NCBI GenBank assembly: GCA_963752335.1
Contig: CAVVXW010000001.1
Coordinates: 345,726-409,725, forward strand
DNA length: 64,000 bases
Reading direction: 5' to 3'
DNA from: an uncultured Acidimicrobiia bacterium
GTDB lineage: Bacteria; Actinomycetota; Acidimicrobiia; IMCC26256; JAENVU01
A model generated the notes under the pieces. It saw nothing but the letters and a program-made list of their open reading frames with translations. It did not search any database and was not told the DNA's origin. Below, piece after piece: positions 27,795 through 32,764 of this stretch; the first letter of the stretch is position 1; every line of letters begins with the position of its first letter. The translations under genes and the position numbers were made by a program.

Positions 27795-28712
27795 GTGAAG
27801 GTGATCCGTGCGCGCTCGATCCCCGAGTCGCCTGCACGTGTGCACCCGCCGCGGGGAACGCCGTTGCGGGTCGGTGCGGTGCAGACGAGCTGGCACTCCG
27901 ACCCGGCCGAACACCGGTCTGCGCTCGCGACGGGCGCGGGGCTGGCGGTCGACGCCGGGGCCCGGGTCCTCTTTCTCCAGGAGCTGACGCTCTCGCCGTA
28001 CTTCGCGATCAGCGAGGCGGCGGCCGGCGTCGAGGCGGAGGCGCTCCCCGGCGGTCCGACGCACGAGTTCCTCACCTCGCTCGCGTCGCGCCACGGCGTA
28101 CCCGTCCACGGCTCGCTGTACGAGGCCGCGCCCGACGGGGGACTCGGGTTCAACACCGCGGTGCTCGTCGCGCCCGACGGCACCCTCATGGCCCGGACGC
28201 GCAAGCTGCACATCCCGGTGACCGCGGGATACCGCGAGGACCGGTACTTCCGACCCGGCGACACCGGATTCCCCGTCGTCGACGTGGCCGGGGCGCGCTT
28301 CGGGTTCCCCACCTGCTGGGATCAGTGGTTCCCGGAGCTCGCCCGGGCGTACTCGCTGGCCGGCGCGCAGGTGCTCGTCTACCCGACGGCGATCGGTTCG
28401 GAACCCGACCATCCCGGGTTCGACACCGAGCCACTGTGGGAGCAGGTGATCCGGGCGAACGGCATCACCAACGCCACCTTCATGGTCGCGGTCAACCGGA
28501 TCGGCACCGAGACCGTCGGTGACACGACGATCACGTTCTACGGATCGTCGTTCGTCTCGGACCCCTACGGCCGCGTGCTCGTCCAGGCACCCCGCGACGA
28601 CGACGCGGTGATCGTCGCCGACCTCGATCTGGACCAGCGCGACGACTGGCTCGACCTGTTCCCGTTCCTGCACACCCGTCGCCCCGACACCTACCACGGC
28701 CTCACCACCTGA
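27795..28712 (+). CDS. Nitrilase-superfamily amidase (N-carbamoylputrescine amidase-like)
   Basis: Glu-Lys-Cys triad: 'LQEL', 'RKLHIP', 'TCWDQWFPE'. Also 'YPTAIGSEP'. Confidence 0.88.
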   Translation: MKVIRARSIPESPARVHPPRGTPLRVGAVQTSWHSDPAEHRSALATGAGLAVDAGARVLFLQELTLSPYFAISEAAAGVEAEALPGGPTHEFLTSLASRHGVPVHGSLYEAAPDGGLGFNTAVLVAPDGTLMARTRKLHIPVTAGYREDRYFRPGDTGFPVVDVAGARFGFPTCWDQWFPELARAYSLAGAQVLVYPTAIGSEPDHPGFDTEPLWEQVIRANGITNATFMVAVNRIGTETVGDTTITFYGSSFVSDPYGRVLVQAPRDDDAVIVADLDLDQRDDWLDLFPFLHTRRPDTYHGLTT

Positions 28713-28770
28713 CCCTGTCTCCTTCGCCTTGCGCGCCCAAATCCGGGGGTGCAGGCCTCGTCTTGCGCGT
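28710..28770. repeat. Left arm of inverted repeat array flanking the DUF559 gene (34-bp period)
   Basis: 28724-28747 TCGCCTTGCGCGCCCAAATCCGGG matches the reverse complement of the right-hand unit at 21/24 positions. A degenerate second unit starts at 28758. Confidence 0.8.
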
Positions 28771-28778
28771 CGGTTGAC

Positions 28779-29687
28779 TCAGGCGGCAAGGGAGAGTGCT
28801 CGGCGGATGGTCCGGATCACCGAAGTGGGGCGCCGGGTCACGTCGATCCAGCTGAAGCGCAGGACGGTCCACCCGGACGTCTCGAGCGCGCGGTCACGAT
28901 GCTCGTCGTGCTCGCGATCAGTGATGCTGTCGTGGAACGCCGAGCCGTCGGTCTCGACCACGAGACGAGCGTCGCTCCAGGCGAAGTCCACCGCACCGAT
29001 CCACCCGAGGGGCCCACCGAGGTTGACCTGGCGTTCAGGCGTCGGGAATCCATGATCCGACATCAGCTCCAGAAAGCGGGCCTCCAGCTCGGTCGTCGGT
29101 GCGACGTAACTGTCCAGGCGCTCGGCGACGACGGACCGGAGGCTCGCCGTTCCGCATCTCCCGCGCTCCGCGAGGTCCCCGAGGACGGCTTGGATCTGCG
29201 CGACGGTCACCTTCCGACCCGCCAGCGTCGCGTCGACGGCACGAGCGAGGCGCCGGGCTCCGATCGTGCCCGCGAGATCGAAGAGCGCACGCGCCGGCGT
29301 CGCAACCGGGAGCCCGTCGACCAGGGTGCGATGACTCTCGGGCAGCAGGAACGTCTGGCTGACCCCGGGCATCGCCAACCGATGCGGTCGGCGGCCGACG
29401 ACCACGAAAGCCGGCAGCATTGCGAAATCCCGGATCCCGTGCATCGCGAGAGCAGTCCCGGCGCTGGCGATGGCCCCGGGCCCGGCCGAGAGAACCGTGG
29501 CCATGACGACCGACCTCGCCGTCTGCGGAGAACCCCCCATCCGGTAGACGCGCTTGGTGACTGCGATCCATCGACCCTTGTCGAGGCGGTACGCGATGGC
29601 GCTCCCGCTGATCCCCGCGCTCCGGGCCTGGGCGCGCGTGAAGACCCCGTGCTGGCGTGCCGCGATCGCGGCGACCGTTTCGTCCAT
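28779..29687 (-). CDS. AbiEi-antitoxin-like N-terminal domain fused to a DUF559 (Vsr-like PD-(D/E)xK) nuclease domain
   Basis: 'IAARQHGVFTRAQARSAGIS..RWIAVTKRVYR' (AbiEi N-terminal-like). 'VDFAWSDARLVVETDGSAFH..DEHRDRALETSGWTVLRFSW' (DUF559). Confidence 0.85.
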   Translation of the reverse strand: MDETVAAIAARQHGVFTRAQARSAGISGSAIAYRLDKGRWIAVTKRVYRMGGSPQTARSVVMATVLSAGPGAIASAGTALAMHGIRDFAMLPAFVVVGRRPHRLAMPGVSQTFLLPESHRTLVDGLPVATPARALFDLAGTIGARRLARAVDATLAGRKVTVAQIQAVLGDLAERGRCGTASLRSVVAERLDSYVAPTTELEARFLELMSDHGFPTPERQVNLGGPLGWIGAVDFAWSDARLVVETDGSAFHDSITDREHDEHRDRALETSGWTVLRFSWIDVTRRPTSVIRTIRRALSLAA

Positions 29688-29770
29688 GTCCGGCACGGTA
29701 CGGGGCACCTGTGACCATGTCGTCGACATCCGCTCGTGCCGCCGATCAACGCGCGGAACAGTCCTCCACC

Positions 29771-29838
29771 CCCCGATTTGGGCGCGCAAAACGAGGGGTA
29801 CAGGCCCCGATTTGGGCGCGCAAAACGAAGGGGGGTCA
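29771..29838. repeat. Right arm of inverted repeat array: two exact 24-bp direct copies, 34-bp period
   Basis: CCCCGATTTGGGCGCGCAAAACGA at 29771-29794 and 29805-29828. Confidence 0.9.
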
Positions 29839-30960
29839 GAACGTGGAGGTGAAGGAGCGGTGGGCGAGCAGGCCGCGGGAGTACGCAGGGTAGAGGCCGC
29901 CGTAGAGGAAGCGGGTGCGCTCGGACCACGACAGCGCCTCCGGGCTGCGGAGCCGGTGCACGGTCTGGACGTACCCACCTTCGTGGACGCGGTACTCGGC
30001 CCACACGCCCATGTACTCCTTGACCGCGCCGATCTCGACGAAAGGCACGGATCCGGTCTCGGCGAAGCGCCGGACGCGGTGGCGGTGCGTGTGACCGGCG
30101 AAGTAGCCGACGATGTTGTCCCGGCGCGCCACCACCTCGACGAACGCCTCGCTGCTGTCGGGATCGATGCCGAAGTAGTCGGTCGAGCGCTCGGGCGCGC
30201 GCAGATCCCAGATCTGGTGATGGCCGAACACGAGCACCGGTCCGCTCGTCTCGCGGGCGAGCGCGTCGAGCCAGCCGAGCTGATCGCGTGTCACCTGGCC
30301 CCCCGCCCGGGTCGGCCGCACCGTGTCGATCACCGCGAGCGTCACGCCGTTGACGTCGACGGCGTAGGGCGCACCCTGCAGCGCGAGGGTCGGATCCTGC
30401 ATGGCGTCGTGGTTGCCGCGGACGTGGTGGAGGTCCGACCCGAAGCCCGAGTACGTGTCGAGGAACGTCTGGTACTCCTCGTCGCTCCCCAGAGTCGTCA
30501 AATCCCCCTTCGCGACCACCGCGTCGGGCGCGTACTGAGTGATCTCGGTCACCGCCCGGCGGTTCATGGTCACGGGGTAGGGATCCTCGCCCGGCTCGGC
30601 GCGCACCCACGGACCGAGCTCCTCCTCGGGGATGGTGTGGATCATCCCGCAGACCTGCTCGCCGAAGTGCACGTCGTTGACGGTCGCGAGCCGAGCGAGG
30701 AGCGCACCCCGCGGCTCGGCGAGGGTGCACACCGTCTGGGGCAGCTCGTCGGTCGGACCACCGTGACCCTCCACCAGCACCGGGTACTCCGTGTCGGGAG
30801 CGAGTCCGTCGACGGTGACGACGTGATGCGGACCGGTGGACCTGACCTCCACGTCGCCGACGTTGGTGGTGACCGAGACCTGCGGATCGGTCACGAACGC
30901 GACGGTCACCGCGTCGGTGTCCACCGCGACGATCTCCGCGTCGCGGATCGCGCCGCTCAC
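29836..30960 (-). CDS. Calcineurin-like metallophosphoesterase (CpdA/Icc-like) with an N-terminal FN3-like domain
   Basis: 'NDVHFG', 'KGDLT', 'RGNHD', 'FGHH', 'AGHTH'. N-terminal 'HVVTVDGLAPDTEY'. Confidence 0.88.
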   Translation of the reverse strand: MSGAIRDAEIVAVDTDAVTVAFVTDPQVSVTTNVGDVEVRSTGPHHVVTVDGLAPDTEYPVLVEGHGGPTDELPQTVCTLAEPRGALLARLATVNDVHFGEQVCGMIHTIPEEELGPWVRAEPGEDPYPVTMNRRAVTEITQYAPDAVVAKGDLTTLGSDEEYQTFLDTYSGFGSDLHHVRGNHDAMQDPTLALQGAPYAVDVNGVTLAVIDTVRPTRAGGQVTRDQLGWLDALARETSGPVLVFGHHQIWDLRAPERSTDYFGIDPDSSEAFVEVVARRDNIVGYFAGHTHRHRVRRFAETGSVPFVEIGAVKEYMGVWAEYRVHEGGYVQTVHRLRSPEALSWSERTRFLYGGLYPAYSRGLLAHRSFTSTF

Positions 30961-31190
30961 GCGCGCGCTCGCCGCCCGATGCGACCGGAGAGACGCCACT
31001 CGCCCCGGCTCAACCCGGTTCTCCGTGCGGCGAGGCGGGCCGACGCGACCCAGCGCGCGTCGGCCTCGGGCTCGGGATTCGCCACAGCCCTGCGCGCGGA
31101 CAGGACGCCGACAGCCGCGACGATCGCGGCGACCTCCTCGGGCGACGCGTCGGCGTCGATCACGCGGAGCCGGGGTGGGACGGGCGACAT
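30957..31190 (-). CDS. Acyl-CoA carboxylase epsilon subunit
   Basis: 'LRVIDADASPEEVAAIVAAV..W..SAR', directly downstream of the carboxyltransferase. Confidence 0.8.
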   Translation of the reverse strand: MSPVPPRLRVIDADASPEEVAAIVAAVGVLSARRAVANPEPEADARWVASARLAARRTGLSRGEWRLSGRIGRRARA

Positions 31191-32764
31191 CAGAGCGGCA
31201 CGTTCCCGTGCTTGCGGGCCGGGAGTTGCTCCTTCTTCGTCCGCAACATCTCCAGCGCGCCGACGAGCACCGTGCGGGTCGCTCGCGGGTCGATGACGTC
31301 GTCGACGTAGCCGCGCTCGGCGGCGTTGTACGGGTTCGCGAACCGCTCCGAGTACTCCTGGTCCCACTCCGCCTTGCGCGCGACCGGATCCTCGGCGCTC
31401 GCCAGCTCGCGGCGCAGGAGGATGTTGGCGGCACCGTTGGTGTCCATGACCGCGATCTCCGCCGACGGCCACGCGAACGCGAGGTCGGCACCGATCGACT
31501 TCGAGTTCATGACGACGAACGCGCCGCCGTAGCCCTTGCGAGTGATGATCTGCACCCGCGGGACCGTCGCCTCGCAGTAGGCGTAGAGCAGCTTGGCGCC
31601 GTGCCGGATGATCCCGCCGTGCTCCTGGTCCGTCCCGGGCAGGAACCCCGGGACGTCGACGAAGGTCACCAGAGGAACATTGAACGCGTCGCACGTGCGT
31701 ACGAAGCGCGCGGCCTTCTCCGACGCGTCGATGTCGAGGCTTCCCGCGAGCACCTTGGGTTGGTTGCCGACGATCCCGACGACGTGCCCGTCGACGCGGG
31801 CGAATCCGCAGACGATGTTCATGGCGTAGAGCGGATTGACCTCGAAGAAGTCACCGTCGTCGACGACCTCGGCGATGATCTCCTTCATGTCGTAGGGCTT
31901 GTTGGTCGCGTCGGGCATGAGGTCGATGATCCCGTCGCACGAACGCTGCGGATCGTCCTCCGGCGCGTAGTACGGAGGGTCCTCGAGGTTGTTCGACGGC
32001 AGGAACGACAGCAGGTACCGCACCTGCTCGAGGCACGTCTCCTCGTCCTCGAACGCGAAGGTGGCGACGCCTGACTTCGTCGCGTGGGCCAACGCACCGC
32101 CCAGCTCCTCCTGGGTGACGTCCTGACCGGTCGCGGCCTTCACGACATCAGGGCCGGTGATGAACATGTGCGACGTGCCCTTCACCATGAAGATGAAGTC
32201 CGTCATCGCCGGCGAGTAGACCGCGCCACCCGCGCACGGACCCAGGATGACACTGATCTGCGGTATGACACCGCTGGCCTGGACGTTGCGGTGGAAGATC
32301 CCGCCGTAGCTCGCGAGCGAGACCACCCCTTCCTGGATCCGGGCTCCGGCACCGTCGTTGAGCCCGACGAACGGCGCACCGACGCTGGCCGCCAGATCCA
32401 TCACCTTGTGGATCTTCTCGGCGAACACCTCGCCCAGCGCGCCGCCGAAGATCGTGAAGTCCTGCGCGAACAGGAACACCTTCCGTCCGTCCACGGTCCC
32501 CCAACCGGTGATCACACCGTCGGTCAACGGTCGGGTGTTCTCGATGCCGAAGCCGTGCGCGCGGTGACGGGCGAGCATGTCGAGCTCGTGGAAGGAGCCG
32601 GGGTCGAGCAGGAGATCGATCCGCTCGCGGACCGTGAGCTTGCCGCGGTCGTGCTGGCGGGCGACCGCAGCCGGGCTGCCGGCGTGGAGCGCCTCCTCCC
32701 GCTTCTCCGCGAGCTGCGCCATGCGCTCCTCGATCGGGTGGGGCACCGGCGCGGTGCTCGTCAT
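31190..32764 (-). CDS. pccB: Propionyl/acyl-CoA carboxylase carboxyltransferase (beta) subunit
   Basis: 'RQHDRGKLTVRERIDLLLD', 'GARIQEGV', 'GPCAGGAVYSPAMTDF', 'VDVPGFLPG..QEHGGIIRHGAK', 'RKHGNVPL'. Confidence 0.93.
   Translation of the reverse strand: MTSTAPVPHPIEERMAQLAEKREEALHAGSPAAVARQHDRGKLTVRERIDLLLDPGSFHELDMLARHRAHGFGIENTRPLTDGVITGWGTVDGRKVFLFAQDFTIFGGALGEVFAEKIHKVMDLAASVGAPFVGLNDGAGARIQEGVVSLASYGGIFHRNVQASGVIPQISVILGPCAGGAVYSPAMTDFIFMVKGTSHMFITGPDVVKAATGQDVTQEELGGALAHATKSGVATFAFEDEETCLEQVRYLLSFLPSNNLEDPPYYAPEDDPQRSCDGIIDLMPDATNKPYDMKEIIAEVVDDGDFFEVNPLYAMNIVCGFARVDGHVVGIVGNQPKVLAGSLDIDASEKAARFVRTCDAFNVPLVTFVDVPGFLPGTDQEHGGIIRHGAKLLYAYCEATVPRVQIITRKGYGGAFVVMNSKSIGADLAFAWPSAEIAVMDTNGAANILLRRELASAEDPVARKAEWDQEYSERFANPYNAAERGYVDDVIDPRATRTVLVGALEMLRTKKEQLPARKHGNVPL

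Follow-up and report, generated by a model that had tools for sequence, protein, structure and literature searches.

A nuclease gene and the repeats around it: AbiEi-DUF559 genes are linked to dispersed hairpin families in a pattern resembling REPIN/RAYT systems

Does a lone nuclease gene that lies between two inverted repeat arrays belong to those repeats, and might it be what maintains them in the genome? The question is raised by a unit at 28710-29838 in a 64,000-nucleotide stretch of DNA from an uncultured Acidimicrobiia bacterium (assembly GCA_963752335.1, contig CAVVXW010000001.1, positions 345,726 to 409,725 of the forward strand; the whole stretch is called the window here, and coordinates without a contig label refer to it). 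The unit consists of a gene for an AbiEi-like protein with a DUF559 nuclease domain and of short repeat arrays on either side. The assembly that contains the window, G000, is a 2.46-Mb, 55% complete Acidimicrobiia genome. We find that genes of this kind are linked to repeat families of their own, and we suggest, with slightly better than even confidence in a reading drawn from sequence comparison, that we have here the resident 'master' locus of a system whose enzyme is a PD-(D/E)xK nuclease and which is otherwise similar to that of the REP-associated tyrosine transposases (RAYTs) and their REPINs, the hairpin-forming doublets of repetitive extragenic palindromes (REPs).

The unit is bounded by the stop codons of two convergent neighbour genes, 1123 nt apart, and both of its ends, read inwards, begin TGACCC. 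On the left, the TGA is the stop (28710-28712, plus strand) of a carbon-nitrogen hydrolase gene (nitrilase, CN_hydrolase; 27795-28712), where the outer end of the left array begins; on the right, it is the stop (29836-29838, minus strand) of a metallophosphoesterase gene (29836-31491), at the outer end of the right array. Two exact copies of a 24-mer form the right regular units 1 and 2 on the plus strand (29771-29794 and 29805-29828), and the left regular unit is an inverted copy on the minus strand with three mismatches (28724-28747, 21/24 identical); no match to the 24-mer was found in 100 shuffles of the window. A repeat search aligned inverted arms of 49 nt, 28721-28769 against 29783-29831, with 82% complementarity, so that terminal inverted repeats are present, and it recovered an inner left copy at 28758, spaced 34 nt inward from the regular unit. 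No target-site duplication is visible at the locus. An earlier note on this DNA, made by a model from the letters alone, had described the two exact 24-mers 34 bp apart with their inverted left partner, a decayed left copy 34 bp further in, and ends beginning TGACCC on the neighbours' stop codons without a visible target-site duplication, and all of these are where it had placed them. The innermost copies on both sides of the gene belong to a distinct terminal unit type with GCGCGTCG or its complement: the left one (28758-28778, minus strand) has GCGCGTCG at 28765-28772 and adjoins the stop codon of the nuclease gene, and the right one (29742-29759, plus strand) has CAACGCGC at 29747-29754, which differs at one position from the complement of the 8-mer in the left inner unit. 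These copies are not regular units in random decay; most of the gene-less arrays in G000 have the same type at their ends.

Between the arrays, and flanked by the CN_hydrolase and metallophosphoesterase genes, the unit holds one open reading frame (ORF) with family support, the nuclease gene at 28779-29687 on the minus strand (302 aa). The longest ORF extends to 29978, and the homologues align from the ATG at 29687; the probable start is thus the ATG at 29685-29687. Residues 4-177 (29157-29678) form an AbiEi-like DNA-binding module, a winged helix-turn-helix followed by an AbiEi C-domain, with matches to the PADLOC AbiEi profile (E 2.8e-29 over the same residues) and to Pfam AbiEi_4 (35.7 bits, cut-off 25). 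Residues 233-298 (28794-28991) form a Vsr-like PD-(D/E)xK nuclease domain that matches DUF559 (PF04480, 45.6 bits, cut-off 20.6) and MTES_1575 (PF18741, 38.3 bits, cut-off 38.2). In an AlphaFold (AF2) model of the 302-aa protein (pLDDT, the predicted local distance difference test score, 88.6), the N-terminal part resembles the AbiEi structure 6Y8Q (Foldseek E 8e-6, prob 1.00), while the C-terminal part resembles the catalytic domain of the homing endonuclease I-Bth0305I (3R3P, prob 1.00, template-modelling score (TM) 0.69-0.74), the DUF559 structure 3HRL (prob 1.00, TM 0.77; profile E 9.6e-5) and the Vsr structures 1CW0 and 1VSR (prob 1.00). Weak matches also connect the nuclease domain with three anti-phage proteins, Hhe, ProA and PDC-S37, at their C-termini. 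Residues D234, E245, H252, D261 and R264 are invariant in 21 homologues, and some of them are presumably the catalytic ones. The gene is evidently intact and under purifying selection, because its dN/dS (nonsynonymous to synonymous substitution rates) among orthologues is 0.17-0.30 (0.22 for the neighbouring nitrilase gene) and residues of catalytic type are invariant. No AbiEii gene adjoins it within the 1123-nt unit or in the neighbouring genes (no search was made elsewhere in the genome), and the unit protein has AbiEi and DUF559-type domains only, with no match to Y1_Tnp and no transposase of a known class (DDE, DEDD, HUH, serine or tyrosine); the profile searches thus agree with the earlier claim that an AbiEi-DUF559 gene is the sole cargo, with neither AbiEii nor a recombinase next to it. 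Weaker fold matches were seen to Toxoplasma and Tetrahymena mitoribosomal large-subunit proteins and to the restriction-like endonuclease domain of the R2 retrotransposon; these presumably reflect the common nuclease fold.

The link between gene and repeats was examined in the genus (19 genomes, top 30 homologues), by comparing the 300 nt upstream with the 300 nt downstream of each gene in both orientations and counting a score of at least 40 as positive. Matching flank repeats were present at 25/30 homologues. Among control genes of G000 coding for 200-450 aa, the same score was reached by 6/1096 in inverted and by 7/1096 in direct orientation, and the window gene has the top inverted-repeat score of all. 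Groups A and B of the genus genes (51-81% identity) are flanked by inverted repeats 45-95 nt long. At the distant paralogues (29-42% identity) the flanks are direct copies of one hairpin of 50-80 nt, and the downstream copy often contains the stop codon. A wider scan, with a single genome for each species, gave 80 loci, of which 75 had flanks long enough for the comparison; 23/75 were positive, 7 of these 23 being genus loci again, compared with 2/369 mismatched flank pairs used as a control. The positives comprise 14/15 Acidimicrobiia loci, a few loci of Solirubrobacterales, one Gemmatimonadaceae locus and 4/4 loci of one metagenome-assembled genome (MAG) of the Myxococcaceae. The 48 positive loci represent 29 unrelated repeat families, and the two flanks of a locus are always of one family; the stem begins in many families with a similar CG-T-run motif, and the remainder varies, with complementary changes in both arms. 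The link is not due to chance, because matched flanks occur at 25/30 and 23/75 loci against about 0.6% of control genes, the two flanks are of one family, and the terminal units stand in register. The earlier expectation that homologues have cognate flank repeats of their own is thereby borne out in the genus and in other taxa.

The repeats are not confined to the gene. A degenerate search with the core of REP-1, the repeat family of the window, found 49 units at 22 loci in G000, in arrays of 1-4 units with a period of 34-35 nt; 21/22 arrays lie directly downstream of a gene's 3' end and 12/22 between convergent genes. The 24-mer is therefore dispersed and intergenic, as had been predicted. 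Each unit is near-palindromic with a single G/C asymmetry, and neighbouring units can pair into long hairpins: right units 1 and 2 (29771 and 29805) co-fold at -25.6 kcal/mol (z -5.2), and a further pair of neighbouring units at -35.4 kcal/mol (z -6.9). By these features the 24-mer family is REP/BIME-like (BIMEs are bacterial interspersed mosaic elements), a classification which alone could render the finding trivial. The terminal units follow a stricter pattern: the inner-type 8-mer (GCGCGTCG, at most one mismatch) occurs at the exact next 34-nt register, at one or both ends, in 16/22 G000 arrays, and in the opposite orientation in 0/22. Mixed-orientation arrays in G000 have the order '-...+' in 4/4 cases, the same as around the gene, and gene-less '-+' doublets are also present. 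In other species the inner-type motif is kept at the gene-proximal ends of group B repeats, despite different outer hairpins. CRISPR was considered and ruled out, the arrays consisting of a 24-nt unit and a 10-nt spacer of near-constant sequence.

Several G000 arrays deserve description in their own right. In many of them, for example at C1:125370, C4:68214, C4:345592 and C4:948590 (TGACCC...), the outer array end lies at or a few bases from the neighbour's stop codon, and at G041:C2:1172100, in the Myxococcaceae MAG described below, the first array unit follows directly after TGA; this suggests either an insertion specificity for gene ends or selection there. At G000:C1:93046-93132, three units of a REP-1 variant (35-nt period, ...CCCATTGC...) are preceded in register by an inner-type unit, and this array is probably intergenic, just upstream of an ATG, despite an ORF call over it. 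The two other close array pairs in G000 (C4:343.5/345.6 kb and C3:658.7/662.4 kb) were tried as brackets of cargo and rejected, since they enclose ordinary genes (SDR-like, ilvBNC region). A segment of 3.2 kb with two genes, located between REP arrays in G000 (C4:343531-345710; L139 2532-4711) and in G015 (L141), is missing from G002 (L142), which has a single array at the junction; this looks like a deletion through recombination between REP arrays. At C4:359.7 kb, a 1.7-kb segment with MarR-like and luciferase-like genes ends in a three-unit REP-1 array, and the orthologous site has a solo hairpin like those that flank the group B genes in G002 (L142) and in G015 (L141 13480-13600).

REP-1 core matches number 29 in G000, 30 in G002 and 0 in 13/19 genomes, and those in G017 (8), G013 (9), G014 (1) and G010 (1) are a related variant or stray matches. 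In G010 and G013, the orthologue at the same nitrilase site is flanked by another family, REP-2, which has 34 copies in G010, 21 in G013, 14 in G017 and 0-1 elsewhere, often as perfect 48-nt hairpin doublets. A variant related to REP-1 brackets the group B genes in G013 and G017, where 8-9 copies of it occur, and for the group C family five genomes have 8-16 copies, counting the pair around each gene. Every one of the five flank families tested thus has gene-less copies scattered through the genomes concerned. A cultured bacterium with a complete genome, Paraconexibacter sp. AEG42_29, has one such gene between two hairpins and about 40 solo hairpins of 92-100% identity across the chromosome, while its 70% identical paralogue has a different flank hairpin. 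An enzyme of the RAYT/IS200 type was considered as the mobiliser of these repeats and ruled out: Y1_Tnp (PF01797) had no match in the 19 genus genomes, in G041 (the Myxococcaceae MAG) or in G042 (Paraconexibacter), i.e. in 0/21 genomes, and the same profile found a match in 6/14 control genomes. As a separate observation, G006 (L042) and G007 (L049) have the group C gene in the opposite orientation to that which it has between these flanking genes in L041 and L050-L055, as recombination between flank hairpins would produce.

The history of the locus bears on whether the unit moves and on whether the repeats depend on the gene. The nitrilase-phosphoesterase site is occupied in G000, in G002 (gene 81% identical) and in G013 and G010 (64-65%), and it is empty in 17 other genomes examined; an empty junction, which the earlier note proposed to look for in relatives, was found in the closest relative, G015, and in many others. 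In a tree of the two flanking genes the topologies (G000,(G002,G015)) and (G010,(G013,G017)) have 99-100% support (100% for the nesting of G015), and the empty sites in G015 and G017 are by this tree losses and not pre-insertion sites, because both genomes are nested within occupied clades. Traces of former occupancy are found at several empty sites: a 105-nt gene relic in G012, a retained piece of the outer repeat in G017, a remnant resembling an inner unit in G003, and in G015 one unit with 6/23 positions changed, all from A/T to G/C. Groups A, B and C each have one conserved syntenic locus, in 4, 9 and 9 genomes, and the divergence of the genes is similar to that of their flanking genes; the genes in this genus are stable, vertically inherited residents and not jumping elements. 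The 1.9-kb nitrilase-phosphoesterase spacer of the more distant G030 (L024 2640-4560) was inspected as a possible related unit and set aside, as it holds unrelated DUF1269 and diacylglycerol-kinase-like genes; the junction seems to be prone to gene gain.

G015 provides the contrast from which a role of the gene in repeat maintenance can be argued. This genome, the sister of G002, is 87% complete in 4 contigs, and it is the sole one among the 19 in which protein and Pfam searches found no DUF559-family gene. It has no intact unit of REP-1 (including its variant), REP-2 or the group C family. Single decayed units stand at 3/3 orthologous sites; at two sites further to the empty junction, G000 has 2-3 units and G015 a single unit with 4-5 changes; G002 retains one of these two sites and has units there as well. 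G000 and G002 differ by a synonymous divergence (dS) of 0.33-0.51, yet their repeat units are almost identical between and within both genomes. The decay in G015 would thus fit a maintenance of the repeats that depends on the gene.

In one lineage the unit is found in multiple copies. The Myxococcaceae MAG G041 (9 Mb) contains a 1.47-kb unit of gene plus arrays in six copies of 96-97% identity, with inverted terminal arrays of variable unit number (periods 66 and 86 nt), sharp ends and unrelated flanks; no target duplication was seen at these copies. A 70% subfamily has four copies in the same genome, with array variants particular to it. Gene-less tandem arrays are numerous there too, and one begins right at the stop codon of a gene. 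The six near-identical copies at unrelated loci in G041 thus show that gene and arrays together can be multi-copy. The possibility of a mobile unit, raised in the earlier note, is accordingly borne out for the distant Myxococcaceae relative only; in the genus of the window the gene is inherited vertically at a fixed locus whose empty sites are losses.

Based on these data, we propose that the AbiEi-like module would recognise the terminal unit or the base of the hairpin, and that the Vsr-like nuclease would nick or cut there; host replication or repair might then duplicate, homogenise or move the arrays. The protein would in this way maintain the repeat population in trans, as a RAYT does for its REPINs, and in some lineages, such as the Myxococcaceae, the gene would still travel with its ends. 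That the protein binds or cuts the repeats is something we infer. A number of points weigh against this proposal. Flank repeats within 300 nt are lacking at 5/30 genus loci (L046, L052, L053, which is at a contig end, L057 and L058) and at 52/75 loci of the wider scan, mostly in Solirubrobacterales, and related genomes in the survey are non-independent samples. A frameshifted paralogue in G000 (C6:8512-9436) also has no flank repeats. G017 has lost its group A gene yet keeps 14 REP-2 copies, and for this reason gene-dependence rests on one clean contrast, that of G015 with G002. The direct, instead of inverted, flank hairpins of the distant paralogues fit an insertion into a hairpin equally well. 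With a completeness of just 55%, the G000 assembly might lack another enzyme. Finally, to our knowledge no biochemical activity has been described for any AbiEi-DUF559 fusion, and we know of no mechanism by which a PD-(D/E)xK nuclease alone copies DNA.

Other explanations would place the repeats and the protein in a different relation. A common intergenic repeat might simply have filled both spacers around an unrelated small gene; the repeat does prefer spacers after 3' ends, of which the gene creates two, and the two other G000 array pairs mentioned above, 2-4 kb apart, bracket ordinary housekeeping genes. This we regard as highly improbable, and it is refuted for practical purposes by matched flanks at 25/30 and 23/75 loci where control genes reach about 0.6%, by 29 repeat families that each time occupy both flanks together, and by terminal units that face the gene in register. 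More credible, but still doubtful in our view, is that the hairpins are cis signals (operators, insulators or terminators) of an autoregulated AbiEi-type defence or addiction nuclease, and that the dispersed copies are a regulon of binding sites or ordinary 3'-end hairpins which the protein neither moves nor maintains. AbiEi proteins bind inverted repeats in their own promoters, and the N-terminal two thirds of the protein are a full AbiEi module. The weak resemblance of the nuclease domain to Hhe, ProA and PDC-S37 points the same way, as do the location of 21/22 G000 arrays after a 3' end and of 12/22 between convergent genes and the strong single hairpin formed by two adjacent units. However, no AbiEii partner adjoins the gene, and identical repeats stand at both of its ends and not at the promoter alone. 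A canonical intrinsic terminator is thought unlikely from a reading of the letters, because the T-tract lies within the 5' arm of the stem and not after it. Some 40 solo copies at 92-100% identity in Paraconexibacter, together with the turnover of families between sister species, need active copying, and in G041 the whole unit is multi-copy.

It is also possible, although we consider it unlikely (if somewhat less so than a purely regulatory role), that the repeats are spread by other means and that AbiEi-DUF559 is a selfish gene, similar to those of homing endonucleases, that cuts hairpins and is copied into them. The similarity of the nuclease domain to the catalytic domain of I-Bth0305I (3R3P) speaks for this, and the gene-less '-+' doublets look like unoccupied targets. 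The distant paralogues, located between direct hairpin duplicates and often with their stop codon in the downstream copy, resemble the 'insertion with long target duplication' described in a study of restriction genes (PMC2853133); the G041 unit, multi-copy with variable numbers of end units and without a visible target duplication, can be read likewise. Within the genus, in contrast, there is no sign of repeated homing, because the genes have diverged about as much as their neighbours, and groups A, B and C are each confined to one syntenic locus. The decay of the repeats in gene-less G015 is not predicted for a mere parasite of repeats, and the Y1_Tnp search of 21 genomes found no alternative mobilising enzyme. 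We thus continue to favour a nuclease-run, REPIN/RAYT-like system with the window unit as its master locus.

The region upstream of the gene has features that may concern its expression. On the minus strand, 29695-29700 reads TACCGT, a putative -10 box located 7 nt upstream of the start codon, which suggests, from a reading of the sequence, a leaderless transcript; the same arrangement is found upstream of the G010 and G013 orthologues. Further upstream is the motif GGTCACAGG (29708-29716, minus strand), which could be an operator, and similar GTCACA motifs are present upstream of many paralogues. At L031, L032, L035, L040, L041, L049, L054 and others, a GTCACA-type motif precedes a TAnnGT box that stands 7 nt upstream of the start codon, an arrangement that may be a leaderless promoter with an operator. 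G000 has one intact copy of the AbiEi-DUF559 gene. Its second homologue, at C6:8512-9436 (L026; 35-42% identity), is split over two frames with a flank score of 26 and probably represents a copy in decay.

Until now the RAYTs, descendants of IS200, have been the one enzyme family to which REP-type repeats are tied. The same genomic logic, in which a resident single-copy gene stands between its own palindromes and a matching set of solo copies exists besides, is seen here for a protein unrelated to them, and the lineages concerned yielded no RAYT. More broadly, and with a confidence that stays somewhat below even, AbiEi-DUF559 proteins may constitute a class of repeat-propagating enzymes, PD-(D/E)xK 'RAYT analogues', each of which would recognise the terminal unit or base of its own hairpin family and, by nicking it, drive the copying, homogenisation and occasional transposition of its arrays, and sometimes of itself, without a DDE, HUH, serine or tyrosine recombinase. 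Many unexplained intergenic hairpins of high-GC bacteria (RAYT-less Actinomycetota, Myxococcota and others) would then be the populations of these enzymes, and thousands of genes annotated as 'AbiEi antitoxin / DUF559' would be maintenance enzymes. If the link is functional, it gives a role to a large orphan family that is routinely mis-annotated as antitoxin, and it accounts for how the intergenic hairpin arrays so abundant in high-GC bacteria arose. It would also mean that a nuclease of the restriction-endonuclease fold sustains intragenomic replicators, through a new mobility mechanism or through homing into repeats, and the 29 families would offer natural pairs of protein and recognised hairpin. 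Should the nuclease truly drive copying, this would be categorically new. The system can be tested, since Paraconexibacter sp. AEG42_29, cultured and with a complete genome, carries it.

Among known systems, AbiE (type IV toxin-antitoxin and abortive infection) shares with the unit the N-terminal 175-200 residues, which are AbiEi in sequence and fold, and inverted repeats near the gene; here, however, there is no adjoining AbiEii nucleotidyltransferase gene, a nuclease domain is fused instead, and the repeats are found at both gene ends and genome-wide. The homing endonuclease I-Bth0305I and the protein of structure 3HRL have the same nuclease fold, and as in homing a possibly selfish unit carries no gene other than that for the nuclease. 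Unlike homing endonuclease genes, the gene is intergenic, outside any intron or intein, without a conserved host-gene target; dispersed hairpins flank it, and it is inherited vertically, with empty sites that are losses according to the tree and to relics in G012, G015 and G017. Elements of the IS200/IS605 type likewise have imperfect hairpins at both ends of a one-gene unit, and the direct orientation in distant paralogues is what one-strand recognition would lead one to expect, whereas the present units have neither HUH transposase nor TnpB, and the ends of groups A and B are inverted arrays. REP13E12 of Mycobacterium tuberculosis, an actinobacterial repeat of about 1.4 kb whose sole gene is of the nuclease type (HNH/DUF222), is multi-copy and is not known to have dispersed hairpin arrays. 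No literature that links DUF559 or AbiEi-nuclease genes to dispersed repeats was found, in a search whose coverage did not extend to subscription journals. Restriction genes between long direct or inverted repeats, attributed to 'insertion with long target duplication' by Furuta, Abe and Kobayashi (2010, PMC2853133), are comparable in that a gene of the restriction-endonuclease fold is bracketed by long repeats without a recombinase; the unit described here differs in having no methyltransferase, and in a flank hairpin family with many gene-less copies, a separate one for each paralogue.

The closest likeness is to REPIN-RAYT systems. According to two accounts (PMC3116915; 10.1101/2021.07.10.451892), RAYTs are single-copy and vertically inherited, and their repeats are conserved together with the gene and decayed after its loss. 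The resemblance covers a gene in single copy and of vertical descent (G000 has one intact copy; the gene is syntenic in 4 genomes, with losses nested in the tree) between inverted cognate extragenic palindromes, dozens of gene-less hairpin doublets, and a separate repeat family for each gene family. On the fate of the repeats after gene loss the genomes disagree: G015 has no intact units and decayed relics at 3/3 sites, as reported for RAYTs, and G017 keeps 14 REP-2 copies. The differences are that an AbiEi-like winged helix-turn-helix and a Vsr-like PD-(D/E)xK nuclease take the place of the HUH/Y1 transposase, that the arrays have a 34-bp period and a specialised terminal unit, and that the hosts are Acidimicrobiia, Thermoleophilia and Myxococcota. 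What is known already is thus the genomic logic of REPINs and RAYTs, and what is new is the enzyme class and the host phyla.

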